NCBI GenBank assembly: GCA_030583785.1
Contig: CP129475.1
Coordinates: forward strand, 614,535-678,534
Reading direction: 5' to 3'
Source of the DNA: Candidatus Dojkabacteria bacterium
GTDB lineage: Bacteria; Patescibacteriota; Dojkabacteria; B142; OLB20
DNA length: 64,000 bases
Shown: one piece after another, positions 3,788 to 35,807 of the stretch
How positions within the stretch are numbered: the first letter of the stretch is position 1
Layout of the letters: each line of letters begins with the position of its first letter
Made by a program: the position numbers and the translations under genes
Notes under the pieces: generated by a model
Databases searched by the model: none
The model's input: the letters and a program-made list of their open reading frames with translations, nothing else
Told to the model about the DNA's origin: nothing

Positions 3788-5095
3788 ATGCTGTATAAGA
3801 ATATTACTGAACTAATCGGCAATACTCCACTTCTGAAGATTGATAGGACGGTACATGGCATTCCCAACCTGAACCTTTATGCAAAACTAGAGTATATGAA
3901 TCCGTTTGGATCAGTAAAAGATAGAGCTGTCTGGGGTATTTTAAGACCTGACTTGAAAAAGATTCAAAAAGATGGCAGCAAGGTGTTAGAGATGTCGAGT
4001 GGCAATACAGCCAAGGCTATTCAATCTATCTGCAGTCAGTATGGCATACCTTTCAAAACTATTACAAATAGAATCAAGGTACAAGAGGTAAAGGATACAC
4101 TTCTACTTCAAGGTGTTGAAATAGAAGAATTGCCGGGTAGCAGCGACTGCCATGACCCAAACGATCCGAACGATCCGCTTGTCTATATTCACAAAGAACT
4201 AACTGATCGATTGCAAAAAAAATACTTCACATCTCAGTACAATAACGAAAGAAATCTGCAGGAGCATTATGAAACGACCGGAGCCGAAATCCTTGCCGAT
4301 TTAACCAAAGTAGATTATTACTTTGCAGGACTAGGAACAACAGGGTCCTCTAGAGGACCTGCTTCTAGAATACGAGAGAGAGATACGCATTTAAAGATGA
4401 TTGGTGTTGTGGCTAACAAAGATGATTATATTCCGGGGATAAGAACAAAAGACGAGATGTATGAAGTCGGCCTTTTACAACCCGACTTTTATGATGAGAT
4501 TGTTGACATCTCCGCAAAAGATGCCACAGAAGGCATGATTGAACTAATCAGAAAATGCGGGGTTCATAGTGGACCAACAGGAGGTGCTGTTTACCAGAAA
4601 ATTAAGCAATACTTTCGGGATAATCCAATTCAAGAAGAATTAGAGATAAATGCCGTCTTTATTGTTTGCGACAGAATGGAGAATTATATAAGTTATGTAA
4701 AAGAAAGACAGCCCGAAATCTTTGGGGAAGATTCAAGAATAAGCTGGAAAGATAGATCAGATGATACTAAGCAAGCGACCGAACTGGAGCCAACACAAGC
4801 TTCGGAATTGATTCACGATCCGAGTTGGCTTGTTGTCGACACAAGAAGCCCCCTAGCTTTTAAGAGTGCCCACATTGCTAATTCATTAAACATTGCCTAT
4901 GACCACTTAGATAAGATGCTCAATGATGGCAATCCGTTTTGTCTTAGCAACAAACTGCTGTTTGTGTGCGCGCTTGGTGAGAAATCTAGAAAAATTGCTT
5001 CGTACTGCGAACAGGCCGGCAGTAAAGCATATTCTCTTGCAGGTGGAATAACTTCTTGGAGGGATAAAAATCTACCATTAGAAAGAGATTTATGA
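3788..5095 (+). CDS. cysteine synthase/cystathionine-beta-synthase-like PLP enzyme (fold-type II) fused to a C-terminal rhodanese domain
   Basis: N-terminus ELIGNTPLLKI, KLEYMNPFGSVKDRA (PLP Lys) and SSGNTAKAI are hallmarks of the CysK/CysM/CBS family. C-terminal ~110 aa (LVVDTRSP...FVCALGEKSRKIASY...AGGITSW) look like a rhodanese fold with a Cys loop. The stop overlaps the next start (ATGA). Confidence 0.7.
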   Translation: MLYKNITELIGNTPLLKIDRTVHGIPNLNLYAKLEYMNPFGSVKDRAVWGILRPDLKKIQKDGSKVLEMSSGNTAKAIQSICSQYGIPFKTITNRIKVQEVKDTLLLQGVEIEELPGSSDCHDPNDPNDPLVYIHKELTDRLQKKYFTSQYNNERNLQEHYETTGAEILADLTKVDYYFAGLGTTGSSRGPASRIRERDTHLKMIGVVANKDDYIPGIRTKDEMYEVGLLQPDFYDEIVDISAKDATEGMIELIRKCGVHSGPTGGAVYQKIKQYFRDNPIQEELEINAVFIVCDRMENYISYVKERQPEIFGEDSRISWKDRSDDTKQATELEPTQASELIHDPSWLVVDTRSPLAFKSAHIANSLNIAYDHLDKMLNDGNPFCLSNKLLFVCALGEKSRKIASYCEQAGSKAYSLAGGITSWRDKNLPLERDL

Positions 5096-6270
5096 ATAAA
5101 CTAGAGAATCTTAAATCTAAGTTTCCATTTTTTGTCAACAATCCAGGGATAACCTACCTTGATAGTGCTGCTACGACTCACAAACCAAATTCGGTTATCA
5201 AGATAGTAAATGACTATTACTGCAAGAATAACGCTAATGCCGGTAGAGGCATATACTCTCAAAGCTTGAAGTTAGAAAATGATGTAGAAGATGTGCGCGA
5301 AAAGGTTGCAAACTTTATCAACGCAAAAATTGATAACATAATCTTCACCTCAGGTGCGACATCTGGAATAGAACAGATCTCAAATCTATTACTCCCTTTA
5401 TTCAATGACGGAGACGAAATCATCTTTTCACCTTTCGACCATAAATCCTTGATACAACCTTGGCATCGGACTCAACAAGTTGCAAGGAACTTTGGACAAG
5501 TAATCAAACTAGTCCCCTATTCTTACAAAGAATCAGGTGAAGCAAATTTACCAGAAATCAGAAATTTTGTTAGCAATAAAACAAGAATAATTGCCACCAC
5601 TCAGCTTCATAATATTTATGGCGAAATAACCGATGTTGCACAGCTTAAAGGTCACACACAAGATGCATTAGTATGTCTAGATGCAACGCAGAGCGTATCG
5701 CACGGAATTCTAGATGTGGAAGATCTTGGTGCAGATATAACAGTATTTTCTGGTCACAAAATGTTTGCCAGTCAAGGAGTAGGTGTTATTGCTTTGAGCG
5801 ATAGAGCAAAAGCTGTCCTTAGTCGGAGTGCTCGTATCCTAAGTTCAGAAACATTGCGATCAACTCTTGAATCGGGAACACAAAACTGGGCCGGGATCTT
5901 AAGCCTCAAACCTGCAATTGAGTTTATCGAAGAATTAGGCAGTAACAATATTCATAAACACCTTGCGTACCTCACCCAGCTTATTGTGCAAGGATTAAGA
6001 AATTTCAAGAAAGTTGAATTTACAAAGGGTCCGGCAAACTGGAGATGCGCCGACGGATACGGAATAGTGTCATTCAATGTTGCCGGTTTAGAGCCAAGCG
6101 AGCTAGGTTTTATTCTCAATGAGCAGAATATATGTGTGCGTAGCGGTGATCACTGTAACTTTAACAAGAAAGAGCAAAGCGTTAGAGTATCACTGCAAGT
6201 CTACAACGATGAAGAAGACATACAACGGTTCCTGAATGTGCTTACAAAACTATTACATCATCGGAATTAG
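5092..6270 (+). CDS. class-V aminotransferase, cysteine desulfurase (SufS/CsdA-like)
   Basis: YLDSAATT start, FSGHKMFASQGVGV (SGHK PLP-lysine motif) and RSGDHCN (cf. SufS RxGHHCA catalytic Cys loop). 392 aa. Confidence 0.75.
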   Translation: MNKLENLKSKFPFFVNNPGITYLDSAATTHKPNSVIKIVNDYYCKNNANAGRGIYSQSLKLENDVEDVREKVANFINAKIDNIIFTSGATSGIEQISNLLLPLFNDGDEIIFSPFDHKSLIQPWHRTQQVARNFGQVIKLVPYSYKESGEANLPEIRNFVSNKTRIIATTQLHNIYGEITDVAQLKGHTQDALVCLDATQSVSHGILDVEDLGADITVFSGHKMFASQGVGVIALSDRAKAVLSRSARILSSETLRSTLESGTQNWAGILSLKPAIEFIEELGSNNIHKHLAYLTQLIVQGLRNFKKVEFTKGPANWRCADGYGIVSFNVAGLEPSELGFILNEQNICVRSGDHCNFNKKEQSVRVSLQVYNDEEDIQRFLNVLTKLLHHRN

Positions 6271-7203: not shown

Positions 7204-7333
7204 GCCACAGGCCACAACTCGGGGTAGAACTCGAACTTCGCTATGCTCGTTCTCGCTAACTCCCGGTTTGTCGAACCCATGGGTTCTCTCTCATACAATC
7301 TCCACGCTGCCCACCACTTCGTGATGGTCACCG

Positions 7334-7785
7334 TGGAGATGGCGGGAATCGAACCCGCGTCCAGAAAATCGTGCATCTATGTTCTACAAGCTTAGCAGAT
7401 TTATTTCAGACGATTGGTAATAGAAACCTGCAAAAACCACCAATCGACTGCATGCATCTTCTTCGCTGTGCAAAGCATACAAGTCTGCACAGTCTGCATC
7501 CTGACTGTGTTTCTCCTTTAGTATCCCATCAGGAAAAGATAACTAAAGAAGGCTTCTAACCGCGAGCTAGGCTCGAGCGGTCTTAGGCAGCTAAGTTGAG
7601 CTGGAAGCCGAAGAAAGAGTTAACTTTCTCAGCAACTGCATCAAAAAAGCTTTGTGCTTTGTTTTCGACGATTATTTTTGTCTTCCCAGTGAGTTCTGGG
7701 AGTGTCGGTTTAGTTACAAAGATACCGAACAAAACTTTGGCTTGCCATAAACACACTATATTCTCTGTCAAAACCGGTCATCCCC
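7334..7785 (-). ncRNA. ssrA: tmRNA (ssrA)
   Basis: Minus-strand 5' end GGGGATGACCGGTTTTGACAGAG, with a G3.U wobble in the acceptor stem. 3' tRNA-like end GGACGCGGGTTCGATTCCCGCCATCTCCA (T-arm plus acceptor, CCA not encoded). Internal tag reading frame ...AEKVNSFFGFQLNLAA-TAA ends in the canonical LAA-stop. Confidence 0.8.
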
Positions 7786-12750: not shown

Positions 12751-13118
12751 TTTTTTATGCTGTTTAGATATATCCCTAGATTCTGCACCATGTCTTCGCG
12801 GTTTTGATAGTCGATAAAGTTATCTGTAACTGCATGTAGCGAGGACGAATATTTAGTGCCCTTTTTGTAGATACATAGAATCGGAATGCCAATGCTGTTT
12901 GCCCAACCTAGCTCTATACCTAGGCCGATAGAAGGGTAACTAACCTCTGCCACAACCAGATCAAAACTTCTCATCTCACCTTGAGAATCGTAAAGACCAG
13001 CATTATGTTCGTGAGGAAAAACTAGTTCAAAATCTTTGCTCCAAGAGGCGGAGTGGATTGGATTGTAGTATTCTTCTTGATAATCGAAAGCTGTGGAATG
13101 AGCGAAATATATCTTCAT
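12747..13118 (-). CDS. nucleoside 2-deoxyribosyltransferase-like (NDT/Rcl-fold) protein
   Basis: MKIYFAHS N-terminus and GLGIELGWANSIGIPILCIY (conserved Glu in E[IL]G context) typical of the N-deoxyribosyltransferase fold. Overlaps the Nudix gene start by 4 nt. Confidence 0.5.
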   Translation of the reverse strand: MKIYFAHSTAFDYQEEYYNPIHSASWSKDFELVFPHEHNAGLYDSQGEMRSFDLVVAEVSYPSIGLGIELGWANSIGIPILCIYKKGTKYSSSLHAVTDNFIDYQNREDMVQNLGIYLNSIKK

Positions 13119-14449
13119 TTTTCTAAAAACTTTCTTGTTTCATTTTTATAGTCTTCAACGCTGGGCTGGTTAAACGCATCTATGTTCATGAAATGCCCCA
13201 TGTACATTATTTCTAACATTCGCATTTGCATATAAGCTCCCAAGGTTTTAGCACTGATTTCTGCAATCTCTATACGATTGCAAGGGATATTGTTGTTTGC
13301 GTAAGCTAGGTCAAGTCCGGCGATGATCGCCTCTGTAATATTTGAAAATGATTTCCCCTTTAGAGAGTCTACCAAATCTAGCTCTAGCTTTTCTGGAACC
13401 TTAACATCTAAAGAGTTATCTTGCGCATATATTATTGAAGTGAATTTGTCGTTAGGACCCCCAAAATAAAGCTGTGCCATGGAGTGTAGATCGACAGAAC
13501 CAATGGACACAACCGGTGTAATACCGGTGCGTACTTCTGCATAATGAATATTGTCTTTTTTACCTAAGCTTTCGGCCATTAATTGTCTGTACCATTTACC
13601 AAGTGATTCAAGTTCTGGGTTAAAGAAAAAGTTAACATAAGTTTCGCGGTCTTCGAGATAGTTAGTGTAGATCTCGAGAGCGGACTGCATAGCTAGGTTC
13701 TGTTTTAGGTTATATGAGCCCAACGATTTGAGCATTTCGACCGCACCTGCACGAAAGTCTTCGATATAAACGCCGGCAAGCATTAACGGGAACAACCCTA
13801 CTGCAGAAAAGACACTGAACCTGCCACCGACCTCTTTGGGAACCGGAAGAAGTAATAATCCTTTTGCCTTTGCTGCAATCCATAACTTAGATTCTATGTC
13901 GGTGGTAATAACAAACTGTTTTTTTGCATCTTTTCCGAAGCGGTTCTGCAGATATTGAAAGATTACTTCAAAATTAGCCGCAGTTTCTGTTGTTGTGCCT
14001 GATTTGCTTATTACATTAACTACAACTTGCTCTATAGACACGATGTCTCTGTCTAACAGTTCGAACAAAGCTTTAACCCGCAACGGAGAGTTTGTATCTA
14101 GAAAGAAGAGTTTTGGCGTCACCGAGTCTTTAAGGTTAGCTTCTACTCCGTTAAGAGCTTCGTAAACAGCCTGTGTTCCTAAATTGGAACCACCAATGCC
14201 GACAACAACTACCCAGCGCAAATCTGGTGAAACGACTGCGTCTACTGCAGCCCCAACTGCACTGAGAAGCTCTTCGTCGTGTGGCAGACAGAGAGATGAA
14301 GCAGGATCGTTATATTTTCGTTCGGAATAAACCTTGCCTAAATGCATTTCGTATTTTTGCAAGTACCGATTTGAGGCGAAGTATTCTTCAACCCTGTTTT
14401 TTGGCGCTGGTGTAATCTTGATTGACTGTTGCATTTTGTTTGTATCCAT
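13115..14449 (-). CDS. pgi: glucose-6-phosphate isomerase
   Basis: VVVGIGGSNLGTQAV (PGI signature GIGGSxLG) and the sugar isomerase SIS architecture. 444 aa. Confidence 0.9.
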   Translation of the reverse strand: MDTNKMQQSIKITPAPKNRVEEYFASNRYLQKYEMHLGKVYSERKYNDPASSLCLPHDEELLSAVGAAVDAVVSPDLRWVVVVGIGGSNLGTQAVYEALNGVEANLKDSVTPKLFFLDTNSPLRVKALFELLDRDIVSIEQVVVNVISKSGTTTETAANFEVIFQYLQNRFGKDAKKQFVITTDIESKLWIAAKAKGLLLLPVPKEVGGRFSVFSAVGLFPLMLAGVYIEDFRAGAVEMLKSLGSYNLKQNLAMQSALEIYTNYLEDRETYVNFFFNPELESLGKWYRQLMAESLGKKDNIHYAEVRTGITPVVSIGSVDLHSMAQLYFGGPNDKFTSIIYAQDNSLDVKVPEKLELDLVDSLKGKSFSNITEAIIAGLDLAYANNNIPCNRIEIAEISAKTLGAYMQMRMLEIMYMGHFMNIDAFNQPSVEDYKNETRKFLEK

Positions 14450-15574: not shown

Positions 15575-15770
15575 TTGAACCGACCTAGTCATCGGGGAGC
15601 AAAGGAAAGAACATCAGTTTTTCTGACTAGTAGACTCCTTCGGGTAGGCCCGAAATAGCCGCAAGAGATGCCCGAAAAGGCATGGATCAGGGTGGAACCT
15701 CCTTATATATCGAAGGACCCTATCCGACAATCGCAGCTGTAATGCGGTTGGCGGATAGGGTTTTTTGTAT
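15575..15770 (+). promoter_or_regulatory. T-box-like leader riboswitch upstream of valS
   Basis: Conserved T-box-like sequence ATCAGGGTGGAACCTCC (cf. AGGGUGGNACCGCG) at ~15692-15708, directly 5' of an intrinsic terminator. Possible Stem-I elements: GTTGA k-turn-like motif, a GTCA loop (Val codon GUC plus purine), and AGAGA. Confidence 0.5.
15721..15766 (+). terminator. rho-independent terminator / T-box terminator hairpin
   Basis: ccctatccg...cggataggg perfect 9-bp stem followed by tttttt. Confidence 0.65.
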
Positions 15771-15785
15771 CTTATAAACATATAT

Positions 15786-18665
15786 ATGCTAACCAAGGGA
15801 CCATACGAAGCAACAATAACAGAGGAATCAATATTAAATTATTGGCTCGAAAATAAATTTTTTAAACCGGAATATCATCCAGAAAAGGGGCTACAGACCG
15901 AGGCAGAAATGCGTGCCGACCAGAGAGATCCTTTCACTATCGTTAATCCCCCACCGAACGCATATATGCGACCACATATCGGGAATGTTTCCGGATATGC
16001 ATACCAAGATGTTTTACTTCGTTACAACAGATTACTTGGTAAGAAAGTACTGGGACAACCCGGAAAAGACCACGCAGGCATACAAGGCGAGGTGGTAGTA
16101 GAAAAGATATTTCTAGAAAATAAAAAAAAGAGCAAACAAGATCTAGGACGCGAAAAATTCTACAAAGCATCGTATGCGCATTTTCAAAAACTTATGCCCA
16201 TGGTTATGGCCGACGAAAAAAGGATTGGTTTGTCAAGCGACTACGAGCGCAACCTATTTACACTTGACCCAAGAGTCGTAAATACGATTTTGAACACCTT
16301 TGTTTCTCTATATTCAGACGGAATGGTATATAAGGGCGTTCGCATCGTAAATTGGGATCCTGTTGCCAAGACCACCCTTGCAGATATCGATACCGAAAGA
16401 GTCGAAAGGGAAACGGAACTTGTTTATATTAAATACCCGCTAAAGCAAGAAATTGATGGAATAAATCATATTACAGTTGCCACAACTCGAGCAGAGACAA
16501 TGCTGGGAGATACCGCCGTTATTGTTAACCCTAAAGACGAGAGGTACAAAAAACTTATTGGAGCGATAGTGGTGCTTCCACTTGCTAATAGAGAAATCCC
16601 AATCATTACCTCTGAAAGGGTTGAGAGTGAATTTGGAACTGGAGCAGTCAAACTTACTCCGGCACATTCATACGACGATTATGTCATGATGAACGAATGG
16701 AACTCTGTTGCCAAGGAAAACGAAAAGATCGGATATATCAATGTAATTAATAAGCAGGCCAAGATGTACGGCCCAATCCCCGAAAGATACATTGGACTTA
16801 GCACCGAAGAAGCTAGAAGCAAAGTACTTGTTGACCTCGAAGAACAGGGACTCATCGAAAAGAAAGAGGCTCACACACAAAGTGTAATGGTCGGAGAAAG
16901 ATCGAAAGCTGTCATCGAACAGATAATGTCTTCACAGTGGTTCATTGATGTGGAAAGGCTTAAACAGCCGGCAATCGAGGCTGTAAAATCAGGAGAAATC
17001 CAGATCCATCCAAAATACATGACAAAAAAATACTTAACCTGGATGGAAAACCTTCATGACTGGCCAGTCTCAAGGTCTCTATGGTGGGGATACCGAATTC
17101 CTGTTTGGTACAAAGGTGAGCTTAGTGAAGATATTGACGAAAAAGGTCAGGTGATAGAGACAGTTGGAGGAGAGAAAGTCGAAAATATTAACGATGCAGT
17201 CAATAAAGGACTTGCCAAGATTCAACTTGATCCACCGGGAACAACATTTGCAGTTATTCGACATGGAGCGACAGAGCATAATCAGGAGCACAGATTAACA
17301 GGCAGAATCGACACCCCCTTAAGTGAATCAGGAATTAAAGAATGTGAGATTTATGCAAATAATCTGCAAGAATCCTTTGATTTGATAATCTCTTCGCCAC
17401 AAAAAAGGGCTTTTCAAACCGCAGAAATCATTGCTGCTAAACAAAACAGCAAACCAAACATAATTACCGACGAAAGACTTAGAGAAAGAGACTTTGGTAT
17501 CGCCGAGGGCAAAAACTGGGAAGAACTAATTACAGAAAATCCTGAACTGGCAAAAAGCAACTCTCCTCTCTTTCAACCCGAACTTCCTGAGGCAGAAACA
17601 ATTACAGAAGTTGAAAGCCGTGTTGAAGATTGGATCAAAGAAACCGCCGAAAAATATACAGGAAAGAAAATTCTTGTCGTAACACATGCGGGCGTGTACC
17701 GAGTAATTAGAAGACAACTTGGAGGAATGAATGCAGACGAATCCAGAACCGATATTGCCAACCTGCAAATGGAGAGGTATCACATTAAAGAGGAGGGCTG
17801 GATTCAAGATGAAGATGTGTTTGATACCTGGTTTAGTTCTGGACAATGGCCGTATGCCACGCTAAGAGCAAACAACATCAATGACTGCTTCTTTCCATCT
17901 GATGTTATGGAGACAGGACACGATATCCTTGAACTATGGGTAAGTCGAATGATCATGCTCTCGTTATACACAGAAAACAAGATTCCTTTCAAACATGTTT
18001 ATTTACATGGTCTGGTTAAAGCTCCCGACGGGCAAAAGATGAGTAAATCTAAAGGGAATGTCATTGCTCCGGAAGAAATCATTACCAAATACGGAGCTGA
18101 TTCACTAAGACTACTTTATGTAGTTGGGAATCGAGCCGGTTCAAGTTATCCTGTGAGCTACGAAAAACTTGAAGGATACAAAAGATTTCTTAACAAAATC
18201 TGGAATGCAGCGAAATTCGTTCTTTCAAATCTTGAAGATTTAAACATTGATCATCTTGCAAATACCGATATAAAGAATCTTAACCTTGCCGAGACCGATA
18301 GAACTATGCTCGATCATATGAACCTTTTAATCGCAGACACCACGCGTAGATTGGATAACTTTAATCTAGGCATTGCTGCGCAAGAGTTATACGATTCATT
18401 CTGGCATACTTTTGCGGATATCTATTTAGAAGAAGTAAAAATGCGCTTGTATACAAAAGATAAGGACGGCAACCCTATAAATACTTCTGAGCAAGAAAAA
18501 CAAAGCAGATTTGCAGCACAGTGGACTCTGTACAACTGCTTTAGAGAGTATCTAATTCTATTGCACCCATTTATTCCGTTTATAAGCGAACGGATTTGGC
18601 AAGATCTACCGAAAACAGACAAAGAAAGTAAAACAATTATGTATTCTCGCTGGCCCCAGCGTTAG
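15786..18665 (+). CDS. valS: valyl-tRNA synthetase with an inserted histidine-phosphatase-superfamily domain
   Basis: ValRS blocks: PPPNAYMRPHIGN (HIGH-region variant), GKDHAGIQ, VNWDPVAKTTLADIDTE, WPVSRSLWWGYRIPVWY, DTWFSSGQWP, KMSKSKGN. An insert at ~17110-17810 carries the RHG phosphatase signature (IRHGATEHN ... LVVTHAGVYR). The ATG at 15786 was chosen because the longer ORF start overlaps the leader terminator. Confidence 0.9.
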   Translation: MLTKGPYEATITEESILNYWLENKFFKPEYHPEKGLQTEAEMRADQRDPFTIVNPPPNAYMRPHIGNVSGYAYQDVLLRYNRLLGKKVLGQPGKDHAGIQGEVVVEKIFLENKKKSKQDLGREKFYKASYAHFQKLMPMVMADEKRIGLSSDYERNLFTLDPRVVNTILNTFVSLYSDGMVYKGVRIVNWDPVAKTTLADIDTERVERETELVYIKYPLKQEIDGINHITVATTRAETMLGDTAVIVNPKDERYKKLIGAIVVLPLANREIPIITSERVESEFGTGAVKLTPAHSYDDYVMMNEWNSVAKENEKIGYINVINKQAKMYGPIPERYIGLSTEEARSKVLVDLEEQGLIEKKEAHTQSVMVGERSKAVIEQIMSSQWFIDVERLKQPAIEAVKSGEIQIHPKYMTKKYLTWMENLHDWPVSRSLWWGYRIPVWYKGELSEDIDEKGQVIETVGGEKVENINDAVNKGLAKIQLDPPGTTFAVIRHGATEHNQEHRLTGRIDTPLSESGIKECEIYANNLQESFDLIISSPQKRAFQTAEIIAAKQNSKPNIITDERLRERDFGIAEGKNWEELITENPELAKSNSPLFQPELPEAETITEVESRVEDWIKETAEKYTGKKILVVTHAGVYRVIRRQLGGMNADESRTDIANLQMERYHIKEEGWIQDEDVFDTWFSSGQWPYATLRANNINDCFFPSDVMETGHDILELWVSRMIMLSLYTENKIPFKHVYLHGLVKAPDGQKMSKSKGNVIAPEEIITKYGADSLRLLYVVGNRAGSSYPVSYEKLEGYKRFLNKIWNAAKFVLSNLEDLNIDHLANTDIKNLNLAETDRTMLDHMNLLIADTTRRLDNFNLGIAAQELYDSFWHTFADIYLEEVKMRLYTKDKDGNPINTSEQEKQSRFAAQWTLYNCFREYLILLHPFIPFISERIWQDLPKTDKESKTIMYSRWPQR

Positions 18666-28029: not shown

Positions 28030-28121
<92 letters not shown>

Positions 28122-28241
28122 ACTATTACGGCCTTTTTACACGACGTTTTGGCATGGCAATTATAACAGTATCCGCCCAGATAATAAACCATTGAGTAAA
28201 TTCTTCTCTAGGTTTAGAATGAAGAATATTAGTATTCGTAA

Positions 28242-29057
28242 ATGAAAAAGCCCCTTCTCCTTAGATTGTTTGTTTTTCTGTCTGTGATCGGAACCATAAC
28301 TGTAAATGTTCTGGCAAACGCCTTGCCTATAGCAGGTAGAACGACAGCAGAAGTTTCCGATTATTTTCGGGTATTTTTTGTCCCAGCAGGATATGTATTT
28401 GCAATCTGGGGACTAATTTACCTGGCATTGATCTCCTATTCAGTCTTTCAACTGAGAAAATCCACATACAAAAACGAGCTGTATAACAAGATAGCTCCTT
28501 TTGTAATTGTGGGATCAATTGCCAATGCTGTCTGGGTACTACTTTGGCACAACCTTCAGATCGAACTAACGCTAATTGCAATGCTTACCTTACTAATGAG
28601 CCTGATTGCTATTTACTTGTTAATTGATAAACACTCAAAGAAAGATAATAGTCTCGCATACAACCTATTTGTAAAAGGTACTTTTTCCCTTTACTTAGGA
28701 TGGATCAGTGTCGCCACCATTGCTAATGTGACAAATATTCTATTCCTTCAGCTTTATATGTTGCCGGGTACGATGGCCGAAATTATTCCATCGCTAAGCT
28801 CAGAAAGGTTGTTATTTGGGTTAGCTAATGAATTATGGGCAGCTATTATGATTGTTATCGCTGGACTACTGGCAAGCTTATTTATCTTAAGGCATAAAGA
28901 TTATGTTTTTGCTTCAGTTATCACTTGGGCTTTATTCGGTATCTACATGAAGTTTCAAGAAACAAATCAAATAGCATTTTCTGTCGTGCTGGCGTTTATT
29001 ATCATGTTGCTGGCAATTCTTCTACCAAGAAAAGCTTTATTAAAGAAAACTAAATGA
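28242..29057 (+). CDS. multi-pass membrane protein, possibly TspO/MBR (CrtK)-like
   Basis: 271 aa, Trp/Tyr-rich helices (FFVPAGYVFAIWGLIYLAL; LYLGWISVATIANV). First gene of the crt-type operon. Confidence 0.3.
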   Translation: MKKPLLLRLFVFLSVIGTITVNVLANALPIAGRTTAEVSDYFRVFFVPAGYVFAIWGLIYLALISYSVFQLRKSTYKNELYNKIAPFVIVGSIANAVWVLLWHNLQIELTLIAMLTLLMSLIAIYLLIDKHSKKDNSLAYNLFVKGTFSLYLGWISVATIANVTNILFLQLYMLPGTMAEIIPSLSSERLLFGLANELWAAIMIVIAGLLASLFILRHKDYVFASVITWALFGIYMKFQETNQIAFSVVLAFIIMLLAILLPRKALLKKTK

Positions 29058-30802
29058 ACAGCGAATTAATTCTTCTTGGACAAGGACTATTTTCATCTGC
29101 TGTCATTGTCTGCTTGTTTATGACCTTTGTTTATCTAATCGGACTAATCAAAAAAGATAACGGAATAGTTGATATTGCTTGGGGAATAGGATTCTCTCTC
29201 ATTGCTGTTTACACATATCTAAATTTTGCAGGAAGTGCCTCTAAGCAACTCTTAATAACCTTACTAGTACTTATCTGGGGTAGCAGGCTCGCTCTGTATA
29301 TTGCGCTTCGCAACAAGAACAAAGGCGAAGACAAACGCTATGCAGATTTTCGCAAAAGATGGAAGAAATACTGGCCACTTCAAAGCTACCTTAAGATTTA
29401 CATGCTACAAGGGTTGCTTATGCTCTTAATATCCTTACCGATAATCATCGTTAACACACTGGGCTCGCCCCAGCTATTCCTTATCAACATCATTGGTATT
29501 CTCGTCTGGGAATTCGGATTCATATTCGAAACTATCGCAGATATGCAGATGTTAAACTTTAAAAGTAACAAAGCCAATAAGGGTAAGATCCTCAAAACCG
29601 GCCTATGGAGATACAGCAGACATCCAAACTATTTTGGAGAAGCTGTGGCATGGTGGGGGATTTTTCTTATCACGATTGGCTCTCCGATATGGTGGATTGC
29701 TTTAATCAGCCCGGTTCTAATCACTTATCTTTTGCTTAAGGTTTCCGGGGTAACACTTCTAGAAAAGAACTTGTCGAAAAGAAAAGGCTATCAGGAATAC
29801 ATCAACGAAACCTCTGCCTTTCTTCCGCTTCCACCAAAAACAGCTGACAACCGCTACACGGATATAGTTCTTCCACTTTCAATTGTTTTTGCGGTTATGT
29901 TTTGCATTGTTCCATTCCTTACTCCACTCCCATACATAAACACTCTAAGTAACGACGAACTTGATACTCCAGGTGCCACCTTTATTCAAATCGAAGGAAT
30001 TAAAACTCTATACCTGACAGCTGGTCCCGTTGACGGAGAGACGGTTATATTAATTCATGGATTTGGAGGGAACGCGTATGACTGGCGCAAAACAATCCCT
30101 TATCTTGCCGATCTTGGCTACAGAGTTTATGCACTTGATTTAAAAGGTTTTGGATTAGCAGACAAAAAACTGGAGGAGAACTACTCACATTCTGCACAAG
30201 CATCTTTCGTTGTTGCCTTTATGGACAAGCTAGGAATTGAGAAAGCTTCTATAGTTGGACATAGCATGGGTGGCAATGTTTCTGCACATGCTGTACAGAG
30301 GTATCCGGAGCGCTTCACCAAACTCATACTTGTAAGTGCGGCAGTGGTTGAAAACTCTTTCCCAATTGGAATTAATACTCTACTTCAGAATGAACCCTTT
30401 GTTCGCTGGGGCAGAATACTTCTACGAACATTCGTAAATGAAGATACGGCTTCCAATCTACTTGAAGATGCGTTGTATATTGACACAGCTATAGAAAAGG
30501 CGGATTTGAACCTACATACACAAATGCTTAGAACGGCAAATTGGGAACTTGCTCTAATAGGAATTATTCGCGACTCAGGCAACAATGCCTTGCCAAAAGG
30601 TTTGGACACAATTACAATCGACACAGGCATTATCTGGGGAGAAAAAGATTCGTGGGTACCCCCAAGTTCAGGGGAATCACTTAACGAGCGTATACCAAAT
30701 TCAACATATTCAGTTATTCCTGATGCCGGTCATTTACCGATGTTAGAGAAAAGCGACGAATTCAATAAATTGTTAAGCGAAAAACTAGAGAATGAAAACT
30801 AA
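29054..30802 (+). CDS. fusion protein: N-terminal DUF1295/ICMT/steroid-5-alpha-reductase-like membrane domain plus C-terminal alpha/beta-hydrolase
   Basis: GLWRYSRHPNYFGEAVAWWGIF (RHPNYFGE signature of the DUF1295/ICMT/PEMT superfamily). C-terminal ILIHGFGGNAYDWRK and GHSMGG nucleophile elbow. Start overlaps the upstream stop. Confidence 0.65.
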   Translation: MNSELILLGQGLFSSAVIVCLFMTFVYLIGLIKKDNGIVDIAWGIGFSLIAVYTYLNFAGSASKQLLITLLVLIWGSRLALYIALRNKNKGEDKRYADFRKRWKKYWPLQSYLKIYMLQGLLMLLISLPIIIVNTLGSPQLFLINIIGILVWEFGFIFETIADMQMLNFKSNKANKGKILKTGLWRYSRHPNYFGEAVAWWGIFLITIGSPIWWIALISPVLITYLLLKVSGVTLLEKNLSKRKGYQEYINETSAFLPLPPKTADNRYTDIVLPLSIVFAVMFCIVPFLTPLPYINTLSNDELDTPGATFIQIEGIKTLYLTAGPVDGETVILIHGFGGNAYDWRKTIPYLADLGYRVYALDLKGFGLADKKLEENYSHSAQASFVVAFMDKLGIEKASIVGHSMGGNVSAHAVQRYPERFTKLILVSAAVVENSFPIGINTLLQNEPFVRWGRILLRTFVNEDTASNLLEDALYIDTAIEKADLNLHTQMLRTANWELALIGIIRDSGNNALPKGLDTITIDTGIIWGEKDSWVPPSSGESLNERIPNSTYSVIPDAGHLPMLEKSDEFNKLLSEKLENEN

Positions 30803-32273
30803 ACATATAGTAGTAATTGGTGCGGGTTATGGTGGTCTTTCTGCCGCTGCTTTATTGGCACACAAAGGCTACAAGGTCACTGTTCTCGAAAAGCACAATC
30901 AACCGGGTGGCAGGGCCAGACTCCTAGAAGATAAGGGTTTCAAATTTGATATCGGCCCCTCCTGGTATATGATGCCAGAAATGTTTGATCGGCTATTTAG
31001 CCTAACCAACAAGAACAGAGAAGATTACTACAAAATTAAAAGGTTAGATCCGTCGTATCGTATATTCTTTAACCAGAACGACTCTATAGATATTCCCAGC
31101 AATGCAGATCAGGTGGGAGATCTGTTTGAAACCCTAGAAAAGGGTTCTAAACAAGAATTAGAAAGATATCTGGCCGATGCTAAGTACAAATACGACATGG
31201 CAACAAAAGAATTTCTTTACAAAAGATTCTCCTCGATTTTCTCGTTGTTAGATAGAAATCTGGTTCTGGATCCGGCCGGCTACGATATTCTTAAGAATTT
31301 TCACAAACATACAAAAAAATACTTCAAAAACGATCGAATTATTAAAATTATTGAGTGGATGATTACCTTTCTTGGAAGCTCTCCATACAATGCACCCGCG
31401 ATCTATTCGCTCATAGCACATGCCGAATTTAATCTAGGAATTTGGTACCCAGAAGGGGGCTTAATTAGCGTTTCTAATGGACTTGCCAAACTGGCAGAAG
31501 ACTGTGGTGCTGTAATTAAACTCAACTCAGAAGTACTCAAAATTAACTGCAAAGATAGCAAAGCTGTTTCGGTTACTACAAATAAAGAAACAATTCCTGC
31601 CGATGCAATAATTGCCAACTCAGAATACTCCTTTACAGAAATGTACCTTCTCGATGAACAACACCGAACATACGACAAAAATTACTGGGAAAAGAAGACT
31701 TACTCGCCGTCTTCCCTTCTCTTTTATGTTGGTCTAAATAAAAAACTAAAAACAGTGATTCATCACAATTTATATCTAGACGAAGAATCTGACTGGGAAG
31801 GACATTTTGACTCGCTTTATAAAAACAAACGCTGGCCAGAGAACCCTATGTTCTATCTAAGTGTCACATCTTGTAGCGATAAAACCGTTGCGCCAAAAGA
31901 GAATGAGAACCTTGTCTTTCTAATCCCCATTGCACCAGGAATCGAAGATACTCCAGAGGTTCGCGAGCACTACTTCAACAACCTGATTGATCGTTTTGAA
32001 AAAATTAATGGAGAGAGTATTCGCGACCACATCGTAGTTAAACACAGCTACGCCATTAACGACTTCGTTCGAGACTATGGGGCTTTTAAGGGCAACGCTT
32101 TTGGTATGGCACATACATTGTTCCAAACCGCTAACTTTAGACCAGATATTCGCAGTAAAAAGGTAAAAAATCTTTTTTATACAGGTTGCATGACACAACC
32201 GGGAATCGGTACACCACTTTCTATTGTATCTGCAGAAGTAGCTGTTAAAGAATTGAATAAAAATATTTCGTAA
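30792..32273 (+). CDS. crtI: phytoene desaturase-family FAD oxidoreductase
   Basis: IVVIGAGYGGLSAAALLAHKGYKVTVLEKHNQPGGRA dinucleotide-binding fold. 493 aa, CrtI-family length and composition. Confidence 0.8.
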   Translation: MKTKHIVVIGAGYGGLSAAALLAHKGYKVTVLEKHNQPGGRARLLEDKGFKFDIGPSWYMMPEMFDRLFSLTNKNREDYYKIKRLDPSYRIFFNQNDSIDIPSNADQVGDLFETLEKGSKQELERYLADAKYKYDMATKEFLYKRFSSIFSLLDRNLVLDPAGYDILKNFHKHTKKYFKNDRIIKIIEWMITFLGSSPYNAPAIYSLIAHAEFNLGIWYPEGGLISVSNGLAKLAEDCGAVIKLNSEVLKINCKDSKAVSVTTNKETIPADAIIANSEYSFTEMYLLDEQHRTYDKNYWEKKTYSPSSLLFYVGLNKKLKTVIHHNLYLDEESDWEGHFDSLYKNKRWPENPMFYLSVTSCSDKTVAPKENENLVFLIPIAPGIEDTPEVREHYFNNLIDRFEKINGESIRDHIVVKHSYAINDFVRDYGAFKGNAFGMAHTLFQTANFRPDIRSKKVKNLFYTGCMTQPGIGTPLSIVSAEVAVKELNKNIS

Positions 32274-32303
32274 AAGTGTACACCACTATCAACTAGTTTA
32301 TTT

Positions 32304-33122
32304 ATGGGCTCACAAGAAATCTTTAAACAAGGAAGCAGGACTTTCTACTATAGTAGCAAGTTCTTTCCTGCCGACAAATTAGAAGATGTAACAAAACTCT
32401 ATGCTTTTGTTAGGGTAGCTGACGATTATGTAGATAGCTTTCCACAACAAATCGATGAATTCAATAAATTCTACCAAGAATACAAATCTGCGTTAGCATC
32501 TAAAGAAATCTCCAATAATCAAATTATTGCCGACTTCATTCAATTAGCGAATAAGTATAACTTTGAAGATAGCTGGACAGAGAGCTATTTTGAATCAATG
32601 GCCGCCGACCTGAAAACCATTCGTTGTAATAATCTTGAAGAAACAAAAAAATATATCTTCGGATCAGCTGTTGTTGTGGGCTATATGATGTCGAGGATTT
32701 TAGAAATTGACGACAGACATCAACCACAGGCAGCCTTTTTAGCAGAGGCGTTTCAGTATATAAACTTCATTCGCGACATAGACGAAGACAACAAACGAAA
32801 CAGAAATTACTTCCCTCAAGATGAACTTAAAAAACATGGTTTAAAAGATCTTACATTTGATACTATCAGTAACAACAAAGATGGTTTTGTGAGCTTTATA
32901 AACGAACAGCTCGATAGATATTTCTCTTGGCAGAATCAGGCAATAGCAGCCTTTAAGTACATTCCAAGAAGGTACAGAATTCCTTTGCAGACAGCGGTAG
33001 AAATGTATTCCTGGACAGGAAGAACAATCAGAAAAAATCCTATGGTTATCTATGAACGCAAGGTGAAGCCAACAAAAACTCGAATCATACTTACAGGTTT
33101 AAAAAGAATCATTAGTCTATGA
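32304..33122 (+). CDS. crtB: phytoene/squalene synthase-family enzyme
   Basis: YAFVRVADDYVD (first Asp-rich motif of phytoene synthase) and a second region FIRDIDED. Confidence 0.8.
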   Translation: MGSQEIFKQGSRTFYYSSKFFPADKLEDVTKLYAFVRVADDYVDSFPQQIDEFNKFYQEYKSALASKEISNNQIIADFIQLANKYNFEDSWTESYFESMAADLKTIRCNNLEETKKYIFGSAVVVGYMMSRILEIDDRHQPQAAFLAEAFQYINFIRDIDEDNKRNRNYFPQDELKKHGLKDLTFDTISNNKDGFVSFINEQLDRYFSWQNQAIAAFKYIPRRYRIPLQTAVEMYSWTGRTIRKNPMVIYERKVKPTKTRIILTGLKRIISL

Positions 33123-33799
33123 ACTACTCTTATCTTCTCTTAAACCTAATCATTCTAATCGGACCTCTGCTTTTATCTTTTGAGAAGCGCGTTAGATACA
33201 TATCGAAAATAAAGCATGTTTTGATTTCAATTTTTCTAGTCAGTATTCCTTTCATTCTGTGGGATCAATACGCTACCCTCAACGGACATTGGAGCTTCAG
33301 CAAAGAACATACTACAGGAATCAATATTGGCATGCTTCCTATCGAAGAAGTCATGTTTTTCTTGACTGTGCCATTTAGCTGCCTTTTCGTCTACGAGGTA
33401 ATTAATTATTTCTTTAAAGACAAAAAAACAAAGGTGTCCGCATATGTATTTGCTTTTGTAGGGGCCTTACTAAGCCTAATTGCATTTACTAATCCGGATA
33501 AGGGTTATACATTAATAGTAAGCACACTTGGTTCGTCTTTGTTCTTTGCCTTGGCATTTATTAGGCCCGTTTTGGTTATGAAAAGAAACTATCTAATATT
33601 TCTGGCAGTGACACTTGTTCTATTTCTGGTTTTCAATTCAATCCTAACAGGGATTCCCATAGTCAGCTATGGAGCCGATGAAATCCTTGGAATACGAATT
33701 GGAACAATTCCCATTGAGGATTTTGTATATAATTCAGTTATGCTGACTTTATATCTGCTGGTTTACAATTGGTCAAAAATGTTTTTCAAAAAAGATTGA
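33119..33799 (+). CDS. lycopene cyclase-domain protein (two tandem CrtYc/d-type repeats)
   Basis: MLPIEEVMFFLTVPF and GTIPIEDFVY, two copies of the PxE(E/D) lycopene-cyclase-domain motif in a 226-aa, 6-7 TM protein. Confidence 0.55.
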   Translation: MNYSYLLLNLIILIGPLLLSFEKRVRYISKIKHVLISIFLVSIPFILWDQYATLNGHWSFSKEHTTGINIGMLPIEEVMFFLTVPFSCLFVYEVINYFFKDKKTKVSAYVFAFVGALLSLIAFTNPDKGYTLIVSTLGSSLFFALAFIRPVLVMKRNYLIFLAVTLVLFLVFNSILTGIPIVSYGADEILGIRIGTIPIEDFVYNSVMLTLYLLVYNWSKMFFKKD

Positions 33800-34521
33800 T
33801 ACTGTTAGCGATAATTGCTCTGACATTAGCTTTTGGCAGCATCTTTGTTCAATTGCCTGATTTTTTTTCTTTCGTTCCGGATTTAACATTGTTGCTGTTT
33901 GCTTCTCCGCTAATTTATTTGCTAATTAAGGAACGAAATATTTCCCACATCTTGGCTGCTACTTTCTTGTTTGTTGCCGGGTTCTTACTTGAACATTTAA
34001 GTTCACTTTACGGATTTCCTTACGGAAAGTTTAGTTATGCTAATGAATTCCTTCTCAATCTAGCAGGGACCCCGATAGTAATTGGTATAGCTTGGATGGT
34101 AATAATTATGGGGGTTCGCTTTTTAGTTCCAAAGAAACTTGGTCTTATTGTAACTTTGTTAGTCTCTGCTTTTCTCGCAGTTGCAGTCGATTTAGTGATT
34201 GATCCACCAGCAGTTCAGCTTGGCTATTGGACCTGGGTAGAAACAGGACCCTACTATAACATCCCGATATCAAATTTTTTTGGCTGGTTCTTGGCAGGTT
34301 TATTGCTGACTTCAGGAATATTTAAACTAACGGAGAACTCCACAACTGAATTTAAAGCTTCGGCTTTTAAGTCACTTTTCTTAATAGTCAGTTATTGGAC
34401 CTTTACAAGCATTATGCTGGGGATGATTGTTCCTTTTATCGTAGGGATCAGTCTGATGATTTTAATAAGTCGTGCGGGCGGTTTTGAAGGTCATGAAAAA
34501 CCGCCCGCACACCTGTCTTAG
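33769..34521 (+). CDS. integral membrane protein, possible carotenoid-modifying (CruF-like) enzyme
   Basis: 250-aa polytopic membrane protein translationally coupled to the cyclase gene. Assignment rests on context and topology only. Confidence 0.3.
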   Translation: MVKNVFQKRLILLAIIALTLAFGSIFVQLPDFFSFVPDLTLLLFASPLIYLLIKERNISHILAATFLFVAGFLLEHLSSLYGFPYGKFSYANEFLLNLAGTPIVIGIAWMVIIMGVRFLVPKKLGLIVTLLVSAFLAVAVDLVIDPPAVQLGYWTWVETGPYYNIPISNFFGWFLAGLLLTSGIFKLTENSTTEFKASAFKSLFLIVSYWTFTSIMLGMIVPFIVGISLMILISRAGGFEGHEKPPAHLS

Positions 34522-35807
34522 GCCTTTACTTCGCCTTTAACACGCATCTGCACTACTATTGCCAGAAACGCAACAACACCGAAAAGAACCATCAGCATCG
34601 AGTATTCTGGAACAGTTACAGCTACCGGAAAGAACCCCAAGAAGAGCAAAATCAAAGGTAATAAAGATCGCAGAGAATATTTTGCTCCCATTGTTCTTGC
34701 ACTTAAATACATCATCATGCCACCTATTAGAAGCAGAGCAATAAGAAAAGCTCCGTATAGAGGCATTGAAAACTCTACACCCGAAGACAACGGAACAAAG
34801 AAATCAATTGTCGGATCTAAAGTAAAACTGGATAAGTAATGGATGAGCGGAAAAAACACGACAAACAAAACTGTATAGATACTCATATCAACATAGCTCA
34901 TCGCCTTCTTGGCCTTGTTTGCCAGGAATAAAAGCGCCGCAATGAAAACTACATAGATTGGAGTCATAGTCAGATAAACCCTCGAAACTTGAGCTGCAGG
35001 ATCCATCTTTCCACCGACATTGACAGACACAACAGGGGCCGAGAACAGCTTTTCTTTATCCCATGTAAGTTTTACTCCGTTGTCTGAAAACTCTCTTACA
35101 TCAACACTTAACCCATAATTTACATTGTAAGACCTAGTGCCTTCTATTGTTACCTCGAGCGCAAAATCTTGTGCATCAACTGAGTCCATCCATCCACTAT
35201 ACTCAAACATTGACAATCCAACCGTGTTATAGCTTATGCGAATCTCTCTTTCTGTACCAGCATCCATTTCTCCTTTCCATTCGATTTTATTATTAACATA
35301 GCCATAATAAGCATCAATGGTTTCAGATTTCTTGATTGGATAATCGACTCCATCTACAAGCAGAATAACATTAGATACTTCGTCTGCAGAAGGGTTAACT
35401 GGCAAAGGAAAACTAAATGTCGTTTCGACCTTACGATCAGAGGTATTCATAACCACATAGTCTGCAAGGAAAGTTGTTTTATAGGTTGGCTGATAACTCA
35501 ATCCAACTTTTACAAAATCCGCGACAATTTTAACCTCAGCATCGGTGGAAACAATCCTCACTACATTATCTGTACTGAGTTTTCTTTCTTCACCCTGTGT
35601 TATTAAATATGTTTTTTCTAGCGCAGGAGCCTGCTGAGTCAACGGGCCATTATATACCTCACCGATGTTCATGTAATTGTCATAAAATACACCACTTCGA
35701 TAAGACGAAACAGTTGACATGACAACGCTAAAGAGCGCAATCAGCATCGTAAAAACTATGCCGAGCAGAATATATCCAGTGAGTTTACCTGGAATCTTTA
35801 ATGACAT
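34518..35807 (-). CDS. CreD-like inner membrane protein
   Basis: N-terminal TM, ~250-aa extracytoplasmic domain, then a C-terminal cluster of ~5 TM helices. 429 aa. Confidence 0.4.
   Translation of the reverse strand: MSLKIPGKLTGYILLGIVFTMLIALFSVVMSTVSSYRSGVFYDNYMNIGEVYNGPLTQQAPALEKTYLITQGEERKLSTDNVVRIVSTDAEVKIVADFVKVGLSYQPTYKTTFLADYVVMNTSDRKVETTFSFPLPVNPSADEVSNVILLVDGVDYPIKKSETIDAYYGYVNNKIEWKGEMDAGTEREIRISYNTVGLSMFEYSGWMDSVDAQDFALEVTIEGTRSYNVNYGLSVDVREFSDNGVKLTWDKEKLFSAPVVSVNVGGKMDPAAQVSRVYLTMTPIYVVFIAALLFLANKAKKAMSYVDMSIYTVLFVVFFPLIHYLSSFTLDPTIDFFVPLSSGVEFSMPLYGAFLIALLLIGGMMMYLSARTMGAKYSLRSLLPLILLFLGFFPVAVTVPEYSMLMVLFGVVAFLAIVVQMRVKGEVKA

Follow-up and report, generated by a model that had tools for sequence, protein, structure and literature searches.

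A probable photoprotective carotenoid operon in a Candidatus Dojkabacteria genome

A 64-kb stretch of contig CP129475.1, from a metagenome-assembled genome (MAG) of Candidatus Dojkabacteria and referred to here as the window, carries six adjacent plus-strand genes (g1 to g6, positions 28242–34521) that probably constitute a chromosomal, vertically inherited photoprotection operon, with a predicted carotenoid-forming core (g3 to g6) and two upstream genes (g1 and g2) that would belong to a separate module. Members of the candidate phyla radiation (CPR, or Patescibacteria) are regarded as metabolically minimal and reliant on a host for many of their building blocks and for lipids. The initial annotation of this DNA, made from the sequence alone, had remarked on a pigment pathway in what otherwise looked like a streamlined genome, a description that the host lineage (Dojkabacteria, or WS6, within the CPR) confirms; the rest of the window encodes housekeeping functions, including several aminoacyl-tRNA synthetases, TrmD, Adk, IF2, DnaJ, TsaD, FtsK and a tmRNA. 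A vertically maintained, intact carotenoid operon would imply that at least one Dojkabacteria clade faces light or oxidative stress and invests in a membrane pigment of its own.

Gene layout, carotenoid core and inheritance

All six open reading frames (ORFs) are intact and keep the boundaries given in the initial annotation, whose picture of serially overlapping or closely spaced genes on one strand is borne out by overlaps of 4–31 nucleotides (nt) and a single gap. The first gene, g1 (28242–29057; 271 amino acids (aa)), encodes a polytopic membrane protein with a long-form, distant resemblance to TspO/MBR proteins, and overlaps by 4 nt with g2 (29054–30802; 582 aa), a fusion of DUF1295, a transmembrane helix and an α/β-hydrolase. 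An 11-nt overlap joins g2 to g3 (30792–32273; 493 aa), a CrtI-family carotenoid desaturase of the CrtID type, which is followed after 30 nt by g4 (32304–33122; 272 aa), a head-to-head prenyl-diphosphate synthase that we read as the phytoene synthase CrtB. The latter overlaps by 4 nt with g5 (33119–33799; 226 aa), a fused two-domain lycopene cyclase of the CrtYcd type. The start of g6 (33769–34521), which encodes a CruF-family membrane protein and putative carotenoid C-1,2 hydratase, is ambiguous: in-frame TTG codons at 33769 (250 aa) and 33796 (241 aa) give overlaps with g5 of 31 nt and 4 nt, respectively, and public gene calls use the second, with a 4-nt TTGA overlap. The g6 stop codon in turn overlaps by 4 nt the stop codon of a convergent gene at 34518–35807 on the minus strand. 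Upstream of g1, a 120-nt intergenic region (28122–28241) separates the cluster from a minus-strand tRNA-Ser(GCT) gene (28030–28121); no other non-coding stretch of appreciable size precedes the six genes, which makes it the likely promoter region. Two weak sigma-70-like matches precede g1 (28136–28164 and 28192–28220), and a consensus promoter/terminator scan of the locus returned matches not above shuffled expectation. The arrangement is operon-like, and the six genes are presumably co-transcribed.

The four core genes belong to carotenoid enzyme families. The g3 product scored 410.2 bits against NCBIfam crtI_fam (TIGR02734; cutoff 238.1), a broad subfamily model, and narrowly passed the CrtID model for bifunctional phytoene desaturase/3,4-desaturases (NF058655; 653.9 bits, cutoff 640). 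Its Rossmann-type FAD-binding GxGxxG motif reads GAGYGG at residue 10 (NAD_binding_8, E = 5.1e-17). The initial annotation had called the gene crtI while allowing that it might group with non-carotenoid enzymes; the two carotenoid models passed, together with a score of 57.7 bits against HpnE (cutoff 283), leave the crtI assignment standing. For comparison, two g3 orthologues from related contigs described below (L010 and L011) scored 653 bits with the CrtID model, and a Chitinophagales CrtI scored 731 bits. The homologue from WS6 bacterium OLB20, which is filed under Candidatus Dojkabacteria, is 68% identical to g3 and already annotated as a phytoene desaturase. Outside the Dojkabacteria set, the closest relatives are approximately 50% identical and, where named, mostly from Bacteroidota (Mucilaginibacter, Pedobacter, Catalinimonas and Ekhidna); the best match in a one-genome-per-species collection is 44% identical.

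The g4 product matched Pfam SQS_PSY (PF00494; 157.9 bits, cutoff 26, E = 5.2e-46) and has the two aspartate-rich motifs of the family, DDYVD at residue 40 (within YAFVRVADDYVD) and DIDED at residue 158. It failed all three NCBIfam CrtB equivalogs (90.5, 76.4 and 60.7 bits; cutoffs 500, 480 and 550), and its top NCBIfam model was the hopanoid-pathway model HpnD (117 bits, cutoff 278.6), with HpnC at 81.5 bits (cutoff 250). Three Bacteroidota synthases whose genes come immediately after crtI served as a control and also scored best with HpnD (98–110 bits) and lower with the CrtB models (48–86 bits). Because these crtI-adjacent enzymes give the same pattern, the HpnD ranking of g4 is uninformative and an HpnD reading was rejected; the CrtB equivalogs do not cover the clade to which g4 belongs. 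The cluster contains one SQS_PSY gene, not an HpnC/HpnD pair. The crtB label of the initial annotation, which had named squalene and hopanoid synthases as the competing group, therefore survives.

The two remaining core genes were likewise described correctly from the sequence, g5 as a protein with tandem lycopene-cyclase domains and g6 as a polytopic membrane protein in the position where CruF hydratases occur. Two stretches of g5 matched Pfam Lycopene_cyc (PF18916; E = 1.1e-30), the protein exceeded the cutoff of NCBIfam TIGR03462 (112.3 bits, cutoff 39.4), and its PxE(E/D) motifs read PIEE at residue 74 and PIED at residue 198; all of the motifs quoted earlier for g3, g4 and g5 are present. 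The g6 product matched Pfam Caroten_synth (PF04240) over profile positions 8–208 of 209 (111.7 bits, cutoff 25, E = 5.8e-32). None of the three NCBIfam CruF models (TIGR03460, NF041333 and NF045693) was passed, the scores being 94.3, 63.7 and 30.3 bits (cutoffs 154.7, 300 and 400) and the best model archaeal CruF; g6 is a divergent member of the CruF family with putative hydratase activity.

Comparison with related contigs indicates that the cluster is old in its host lineage. On L010, a contig of 154 kb bearing the gene for the OLB20 CrtI protein, all six genes occupy the same syntenic site, preceding the gene for a 429-aa protein, trmD, adk, rhomboid, grx and IF2, with one minus-strand gene inserted between g1 and g2. 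Cluster genes are 41–68% identical between the window and L010, and flanking genes 32–71%. This shared synteny, together with divergence equal to that of the flanks, argues that this Dojkabacteria clade inherited the operon from its ancestor rather than gaining it as a recent island. A recent horizontal origin was rejected on the same grounds and on composition: the whole-gene guanine plus cytosine (GC) content of the cluster equals that of its flanks, and third-position GC is on average only slightly higher. Transfer as a block from Bacteroidota also found no support, as homologues of g5 and g6 were both lacking up to 10 kb from crtI in four fetched Bacteroidota crtI–crtB loci. In a second relative, from a JGI metagenome (L011), the g2 homologue is split into two ORFs.

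Logan contigs that matched g3 or g1 (L001–L003 and L012) all start at the same base within tRNA-Ser (approximately 28033), and three of them end near the 3' end of g6 (approximately 34483–34506); contigs from the other side (L022–L025) end just past the gene for the 429-aa protein. Such shared break points are likely to reflect shared k-mers or microdiversity. Two contigs (L020 and L021) read through the junction between g6 and the neighbouring gene, and no variant without the cluster was seen among these contigs. DRR859381 and SRR31845183 are examples of samples in which the strain occurs.

The TspO-like and DUF1295–hydrolase proteins

The g2 product combines a DUF1295 domain (approximately residues 1–260; PF06966, 249 bits, E = 4.4e-74), one transmembrane helix (approximately 267–296) and an α/β-hydrolase (approximately 300–582; Abhydrolase_1, 132 bits, E = 3.2e-38), in keeping with the DUF1295–hydrolase fusion named in the initial annotation. 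Its DUF1295 half also matched Steroid_dh (30.7 bits, cutoff 22.6) and contains the cofactor-site motif RHPxYxGE as RHPNYFGE from residue 189. This domain had no match in the Protein Data Bank (PDB) by sequence. Its AlphaFold2 model (predicted local distance difference test (pLDDT) 94) had as best Foldseek matches the steroid 5α-reductases SRD5A2 (7bw1) and PbSRD5A (7c83) and a Δ14-sterol reductase (4quv), with probability 1.0 and template modelling (TM)-scores of 0.54–0.60 by query and 0.39–0.64 by target, compared with only 0.36 for the methyltransferase ICMT. The modelled domain thus has the 7-TM fold of NADPH-dependent membrane ene-reductases.

In the hydrolase half, the oxyanion motif HGFG (residue 335), the nucleophile elbow GHSMG (402, with its serine at 404) and the C-terminal histidine motif GHLP (559) are all present. 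Its closest PDB sequences are meta-cleavage-product hydrolases and epoxide hydrolases. Epoxide hydrolases use an aspartate nucleophile; the serine nucleophile of g2 argues against an epoxide-hydrolase mechanism, despite the presence of such enzymes among the matches. Basic residues before the additional transmembrane helix and acidic residues after it suggest that the hydrolase domain faces outside the cytoplasm. An exhaustive HMMER search of 1.84 billion sequence representatives recovered three full-length DUF1295–hydrolase fusions (the query, the protein of WS6 OLB20 and one other) and one shortened form, the remaining matches covering one half only. With three full-length representatives in a collection of this size, we regard the fusion as lineage-specific.

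The initial annotation had described g1 as TspO/CrtK-like, and this stands as a distant relationship but not as family membership. The protein is identical (100%) to the Candidatus Dojkabacteria hypothetical protein QY330_03040, which is encoded on a contig of 1.17 Mb. A direct TspO assignment failed: g1 had no Pfam match (TspO_MBR, PF03073, included, at E values up to 10), no NCBIfam match and no phmmer match in the PDB, and a profile of the 31-sequence g1 family reached no TSPO sequence there. The link emerges at the level of its homologues, as TspO_MBR matched 21 of the 31 aligned sequences, which comprise g1 and 30 homologues 40–55% identical to it (best E = 2.3e-8). This large family of proteins of 250–260 aa is, where named, mostly from Anaerolineae, and some members carry the annotation tryptophan-rich sensory protein or translocator protein. 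The AlphaFold2 model of g1 (pLDDT 88) aligned by Foldseek with the TSPO structures 4rym, 4ryi and 4uc1 over approximately 170 columns, with TM-scores by target of 0.69–0.71, probabilities of 0.60–0.93 and non-significant E values of approximately 2–6; three predicted helices lie beyond the TSPO-like core. We therefore call g1 TspO-like, on the strength of Pfam matches among its homologues and of fold similarity.

Relatives of g1 and g2 recur together elsewhere in the vicinity of light-related genes. The neighbourhood sample comprised four g1-family contexts and one DUF1295 context. A locus in an Anaerolineae MAG contains a g1 homologue, a short-chain dehydrogenase/reductase, CrtI, CrtB, a lycopene-cyclase-domain protein, a homologue of the g2 hydrolase half, a photolyase and a CrtD-like gene. 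On a 500-kb contig (L017, 8001–14280), a g1 homologue, DegV and DUF1295 stand in a row, with a CarH/LitR-like gene (MerR plus B12-binding) approximately 4 kb downstream on the opposite strand; in another context, a g1 homologue is accompanied by photolyase, amine oxidase and DUF1295 genes. DUF2177 and a pyrimidine-dimer glycosylase adjoin the best DUF1295 match to g2. Across other phyla, g1 and g2 relatives keep company with one another as well as with genes for photolyase, DegV and a CarH-like regulator, whether or not crt genes are present. Metagenomic fusion proteins (P0261, P0263, P0265, P0266, P0277 and P0290) join DUF1295 to TspO_MBR (P0265), to CrtI-like amine oxidases (P0261, P0266 and P0277) and also to cyclopropane-fatty-acid-synthase domains; as Rosetta-stone pointers, these architectures hint at action on unsaturated lipids. 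Published work places DUF1295 with DegV and DUF2177 around heliorhodopsins, where it is enriched (bioRxiv 10.1101/2021.02.16.431466), lists a DUF1295 gene in a table of a Chlamydomonas singlet-oxygen acclimation study (PMC4067076) and identifies the DUF1295-like fungal enzyme UsgR as a proven ene-reductase (PMC8597850). From these neighbourhoods and fusions we propose, with moderate confidence, that g1 and g2 represent a recurrent membrane-lipid module of light or oxidative stress that accompanies genes for carotenoids and DNA repair, and that they are not dedicated to carotenoid tailoring. The association of TspO-like, DUF1295 and hydrolase genes with photolyase, DegV and CarH-like genes would also offer a functional handle, in light-stress lipid chemistry, on the widespread DUF1295 family, which has no assigned function.

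Alternatively, the six genes could form one pathway, in which the DUF1295 domain saturates a carotenoid double bond, the hydrolase adds an acyl group to a hydroxy-carotenoid or removes one, and the TspO-like protein serves in pigment binding or handling, yielding an unusual end product. The tight packing of all six genes and their retention in the OLB20-like relative fit this idea, as do the ene-reductase fold with its UsgR precedent, the fusions of DUF1295 to CrtI-like amine oxidases and the Anaerolineae crt locus with its g1 and hydrolase homologues. We nonetheless consider it unlikely. Relatives of g1 and DUF1295 pair away from crt genes, with DegV, the CarH-like gene, DUF2177 and pyrimidine-dimer glycosylase; the fusions to cyclopropane-fatty-acid-synthase domains point to fatty-acyl substrates; and the hydrolase, judged by its transmembrane helix and charge distribution, is probably extracytoplasmic, away from carotenoid synthesis. 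The suggestion in the initial annotation that both of its uncharacterized membrane enzymes may specify an unusual end product was accordingly not upheld: the family of g6 includes characterized hydratases, and the relatives of g1 and g2 pair with light-stress genes with or without crt genes.

Predicted product, precursor supply and rival pathways

Family membership suggests a short route for the core genes. CrtB (g4) would join a pair of geranylgeranyl diphosphate (GGPP) molecules to form phytoene, which the single CrtI/CrtID-type g3 would desaturate to lycopene, perhaps adding a later 3',4'-desaturation; a bifunctional CrtI/CrtD desaturase has a precedent in Haloarcula japonica (PMC11946383). 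The fused CrtYcd g5 would then close one or both ends of lycopene to give γ- or β-carotene, its sequence being compatible with one ring or two, and the CruF-family g6 would hydrate the C-1',2' bond of an end left open. As products, the route predicts 1'-hydroxy-γ-carotene or, if g3 is bifunctional, 1'-hydroxytorulene, with or without β-carotene, which would amount to the core of a flexixanthin/myxol/deinoxanthin-type pathway without ring ketolase or hydroxylase. Co-transcribed with this core, g1 and g2 would act as the separate light- or oxidative-stress membrane-lipid module, and GGPP would have to come from a gene outside the 64-kb window or from outside the cell.

Several observations weigh against this photoprotection reading. 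The initial annotation had remarked that crtE was missing from the cluster, and its absence extends to the whole window: Pfam scans of the larger ORFs found no polyprenyl synthase and no gene of the methylerythritol phosphate or mevalonate pathways, and among all ORFs of at least 100 aa none had the two DDxxD motifs of trans-prenyl synthases. Neither g4 nor g6 reaches any NCBIfam equivalog cutoff, so that their exact reactions rest on context, and the PDB sequences closest to g4 are C30 dehydrosqualene synthases (CrtM; E = 1.7e-10 to 2e-9). The g3 product exceeds the CrtID cutoff by only 14 bits, and L011 carries a second CrtI paralogue (3917–5380) between crtI and crtB that shares 36% identity with g3 and reaches 506 bits with the CrtID model, below cutoff; phytoene desaturation and 3,4-desaturation may be split between the two L011 paralogues, and an added 3',4'-desaturation by g3 itself is a guess. 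In L010, a minus-strand glycosyltransferase (GT2) gene (12922–14343) separates crtYcd from cruF. The match of that cruF to g6 is spread over two different reading frames, reflecting either a frameshift (and possibly a pseudogene) or a faulty assembly; some lineages may be losing the pathway. Finally, one of the four sampled g1-homologue contexts had no light-related neighbours, in what is a small sample.

The origin of GGPP is a concrete, testable question raised by the operon. The ordinary explanation would be a GGPP-capable synthase encoded elsewhere; the alternative is an unconventional supply of precursors. A bolder combination of ideas is that this CPR genome of approximately 1.2 Mb makes its own carotenoid with no recognizable GGPP synthase, through an unrecognized prenyl synthase or host-derived precursors, and that g1 and the g2 fusion form a light- or singlet-oxygen-responsive system for membrane-lipid repair or remodelling shared with Chloroflexota and other phyla; we hold this combination to be rather unlikely.

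Another possible purpose of the operon is to supply β-carotene mainly as a retinal precursor for a rhodopsin or heliorhodopsin encoded elsewhere, with photoprotection secondary. In principle β-carotene is reachable through g5, Patescibacteria carry rhodopsins and heliorhodopsins (according to work cited in PMC9948471 and to bioRxiv 10.1101/2021.02.01.429150), and DUF1295 genes are enriched near heliorhodopsins (bioRxiv 10.1101/2021.02.16.431466). However, among the larger ORFs of the window, Pfam scans turned up neither a rhodopsin or heliorhodopsin nor a gene for carotene cleavage, and a CruF hydratase has no role in retinal formation, which together make a retinal-supply role distinctly unlikely. 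The same scans found no UbiA/LyeJ gene in the window, and a C50 bacterioruberin route is therefore also unlikely.

The substrates of lycopene cyclases and of CruF are C40 ψ-end groups, a feature absent from diapocarotenoids. The presence of both enzymes in the operon thus bears on the choice between the C40 route and a C30 (4,4'-diapo) pathway from farnesyl diphosphate, in which g4 would be a CrtM-like dehydrosqualene synthase, g3 would be CrtN-like and crtE would be needless. The lack of a GGPP synthase in the window, the CrtM proteins at the head of the PDB matches of g4 and the breadth of the crtI_fam model are all compatible with a C30 product. On the other hand, Ser18 of g4 aligns, in a HMMER alignment that provides single-residue evidence, with the size-limiting Phe26 of Staphylococcus aureus CrtM, a position occupied by Phe in both aligned CrtM sequences and by Ser, Val or Ile in the extracted CrtB sequences. 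The substitutions F26A, F26S and F26L enable CrtM to accept GGPP and form C40 phytoene (PMC13304436). The g3 product, moreover, passes the CrtID cutoff, and its nearest named relatives outside Dojkabacteria are mostly CrtI-family proteins of Bacteroidota. Given Ser18, a CrtID-type desaturase and a cyclase and hydratase that need C40 ψ-ends, we judge the C30 route very improbable. A squalene- or hopanoid-type HpnC/HpnD/HpnE pathway in place of a pigment is effectively refuted, since HpnD, although the top model for g4, scores far below its cutoff and behaves identically with the Bacteroidota crtI-adjacent synthases, a single SQS_PSY gene is present where two would be needed, g3 prefers crtI_fam to HpnE by 410 to 57.7 bits, and neither lycopene cyclase nor CruF has a role in squalene synthesis.

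Known systems and neighbouring features

The core carotenoid chemistry is ordinary and of a familiar type; the novelty lies in the host clade, in the presence within a CPR genome of a complete operon from crtB to cruF without visible crtE, and in the association with g1 and g2. A full-text search of a literature library, itself incomplete, returned no paper discussing a Dojkabacteria carotenoid operon. The closest known system is the flexixanthin-type crtI–crtB–crtYcd–cruF cluster of Bacteroidota, exemplified by Algoriphagus, with crtZ, crtI, crtB, crtYcd, crtW and cruF (Tao et al. 2006; PMC10784355). Both clusters contain the CrtI, CrtB, fused CrtYcd and CruF families and the gene order crtI–crtB–crtYcd. 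The Dojkabacteria cluster, by contrast, lacks crtW, crtZ, crtG and a separate crtD, so that ring oxygenation is not predicted; crtE was not found, g1 and g2 are additional, and the host is a CPR bacterium.

A second point of comparison is the bacterioruberin gene set lyeJ–crtD–cruF of haloarchaea (PMC11946383), whose counterparts lyeJ, crtD and cruF have been reported as scattered genes in Patescibacteria of Lake Baikal (PMC9948471). These sets and the operon described here pair a CrtID-named desaturase with a CruF-family hydratase. The window differs in having no LyeJ/UbiA prenyltransferase, so that a C50 product is not expected, and in having crtB and a cyclase, with all genes in one operon whereas the Baikal genes are scattered. 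A further, positional analogy is with the crt cluster of Rhodobacter, which contains tspO (crtK): in both, a TspO-type membrane protein lies inside a carotenoid cluster. Any resemblance of g1 itself lies in the predicted fold; at 271 aa, it has three extra predicted helices, and it failed Pfam TspO_MBR. Finally, light-stress neighbourhoods with DUF1295, DegV and DUF2177 near heliorhodopsins, and islands that combine carotenoid and photolyase genes (bioRxiv 10.1101/2021.02.16.431466; 10.1101/2021.02.01.429150), likewise place DUF1295 beside light-related genes; the window, however, has no rhodopsin, DegV, DUF2177 or photolyase, and its DUF1295 is joined to an α/β-hydrolase in an architecture known from only three representative clusters.

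Three other features of the window deserve mention. The convergent neighbour of g6 (34518–35807, minus strand) encodes a 429-aa predicted membrane protein with no Pfam match; the OLB20-like contig has a 47%-identical counterpart in the corresponding place, and 29 assembly-collection blocks list an identical protein. At 15765–18665 (plus strand), a 966-aa class-I aminoacyl-tRNA synthetase contains a complete His_Phos_1 insert (histidine phosphatase/PGAM; residues 497–679, E = 1.8e-43) surrounded by tRNA-synt_1 (25–480), a further synthetase match (743–788) and Anticodon_1 (845–965). The tmRNA gene lies at 7331–7785 (minus strand; Rfam, 121 bits), and ARAGORN predicts for it a tag peptide of 28 residues, VENKAQSFFDAVAEKVNSFFGFQLNLAA.

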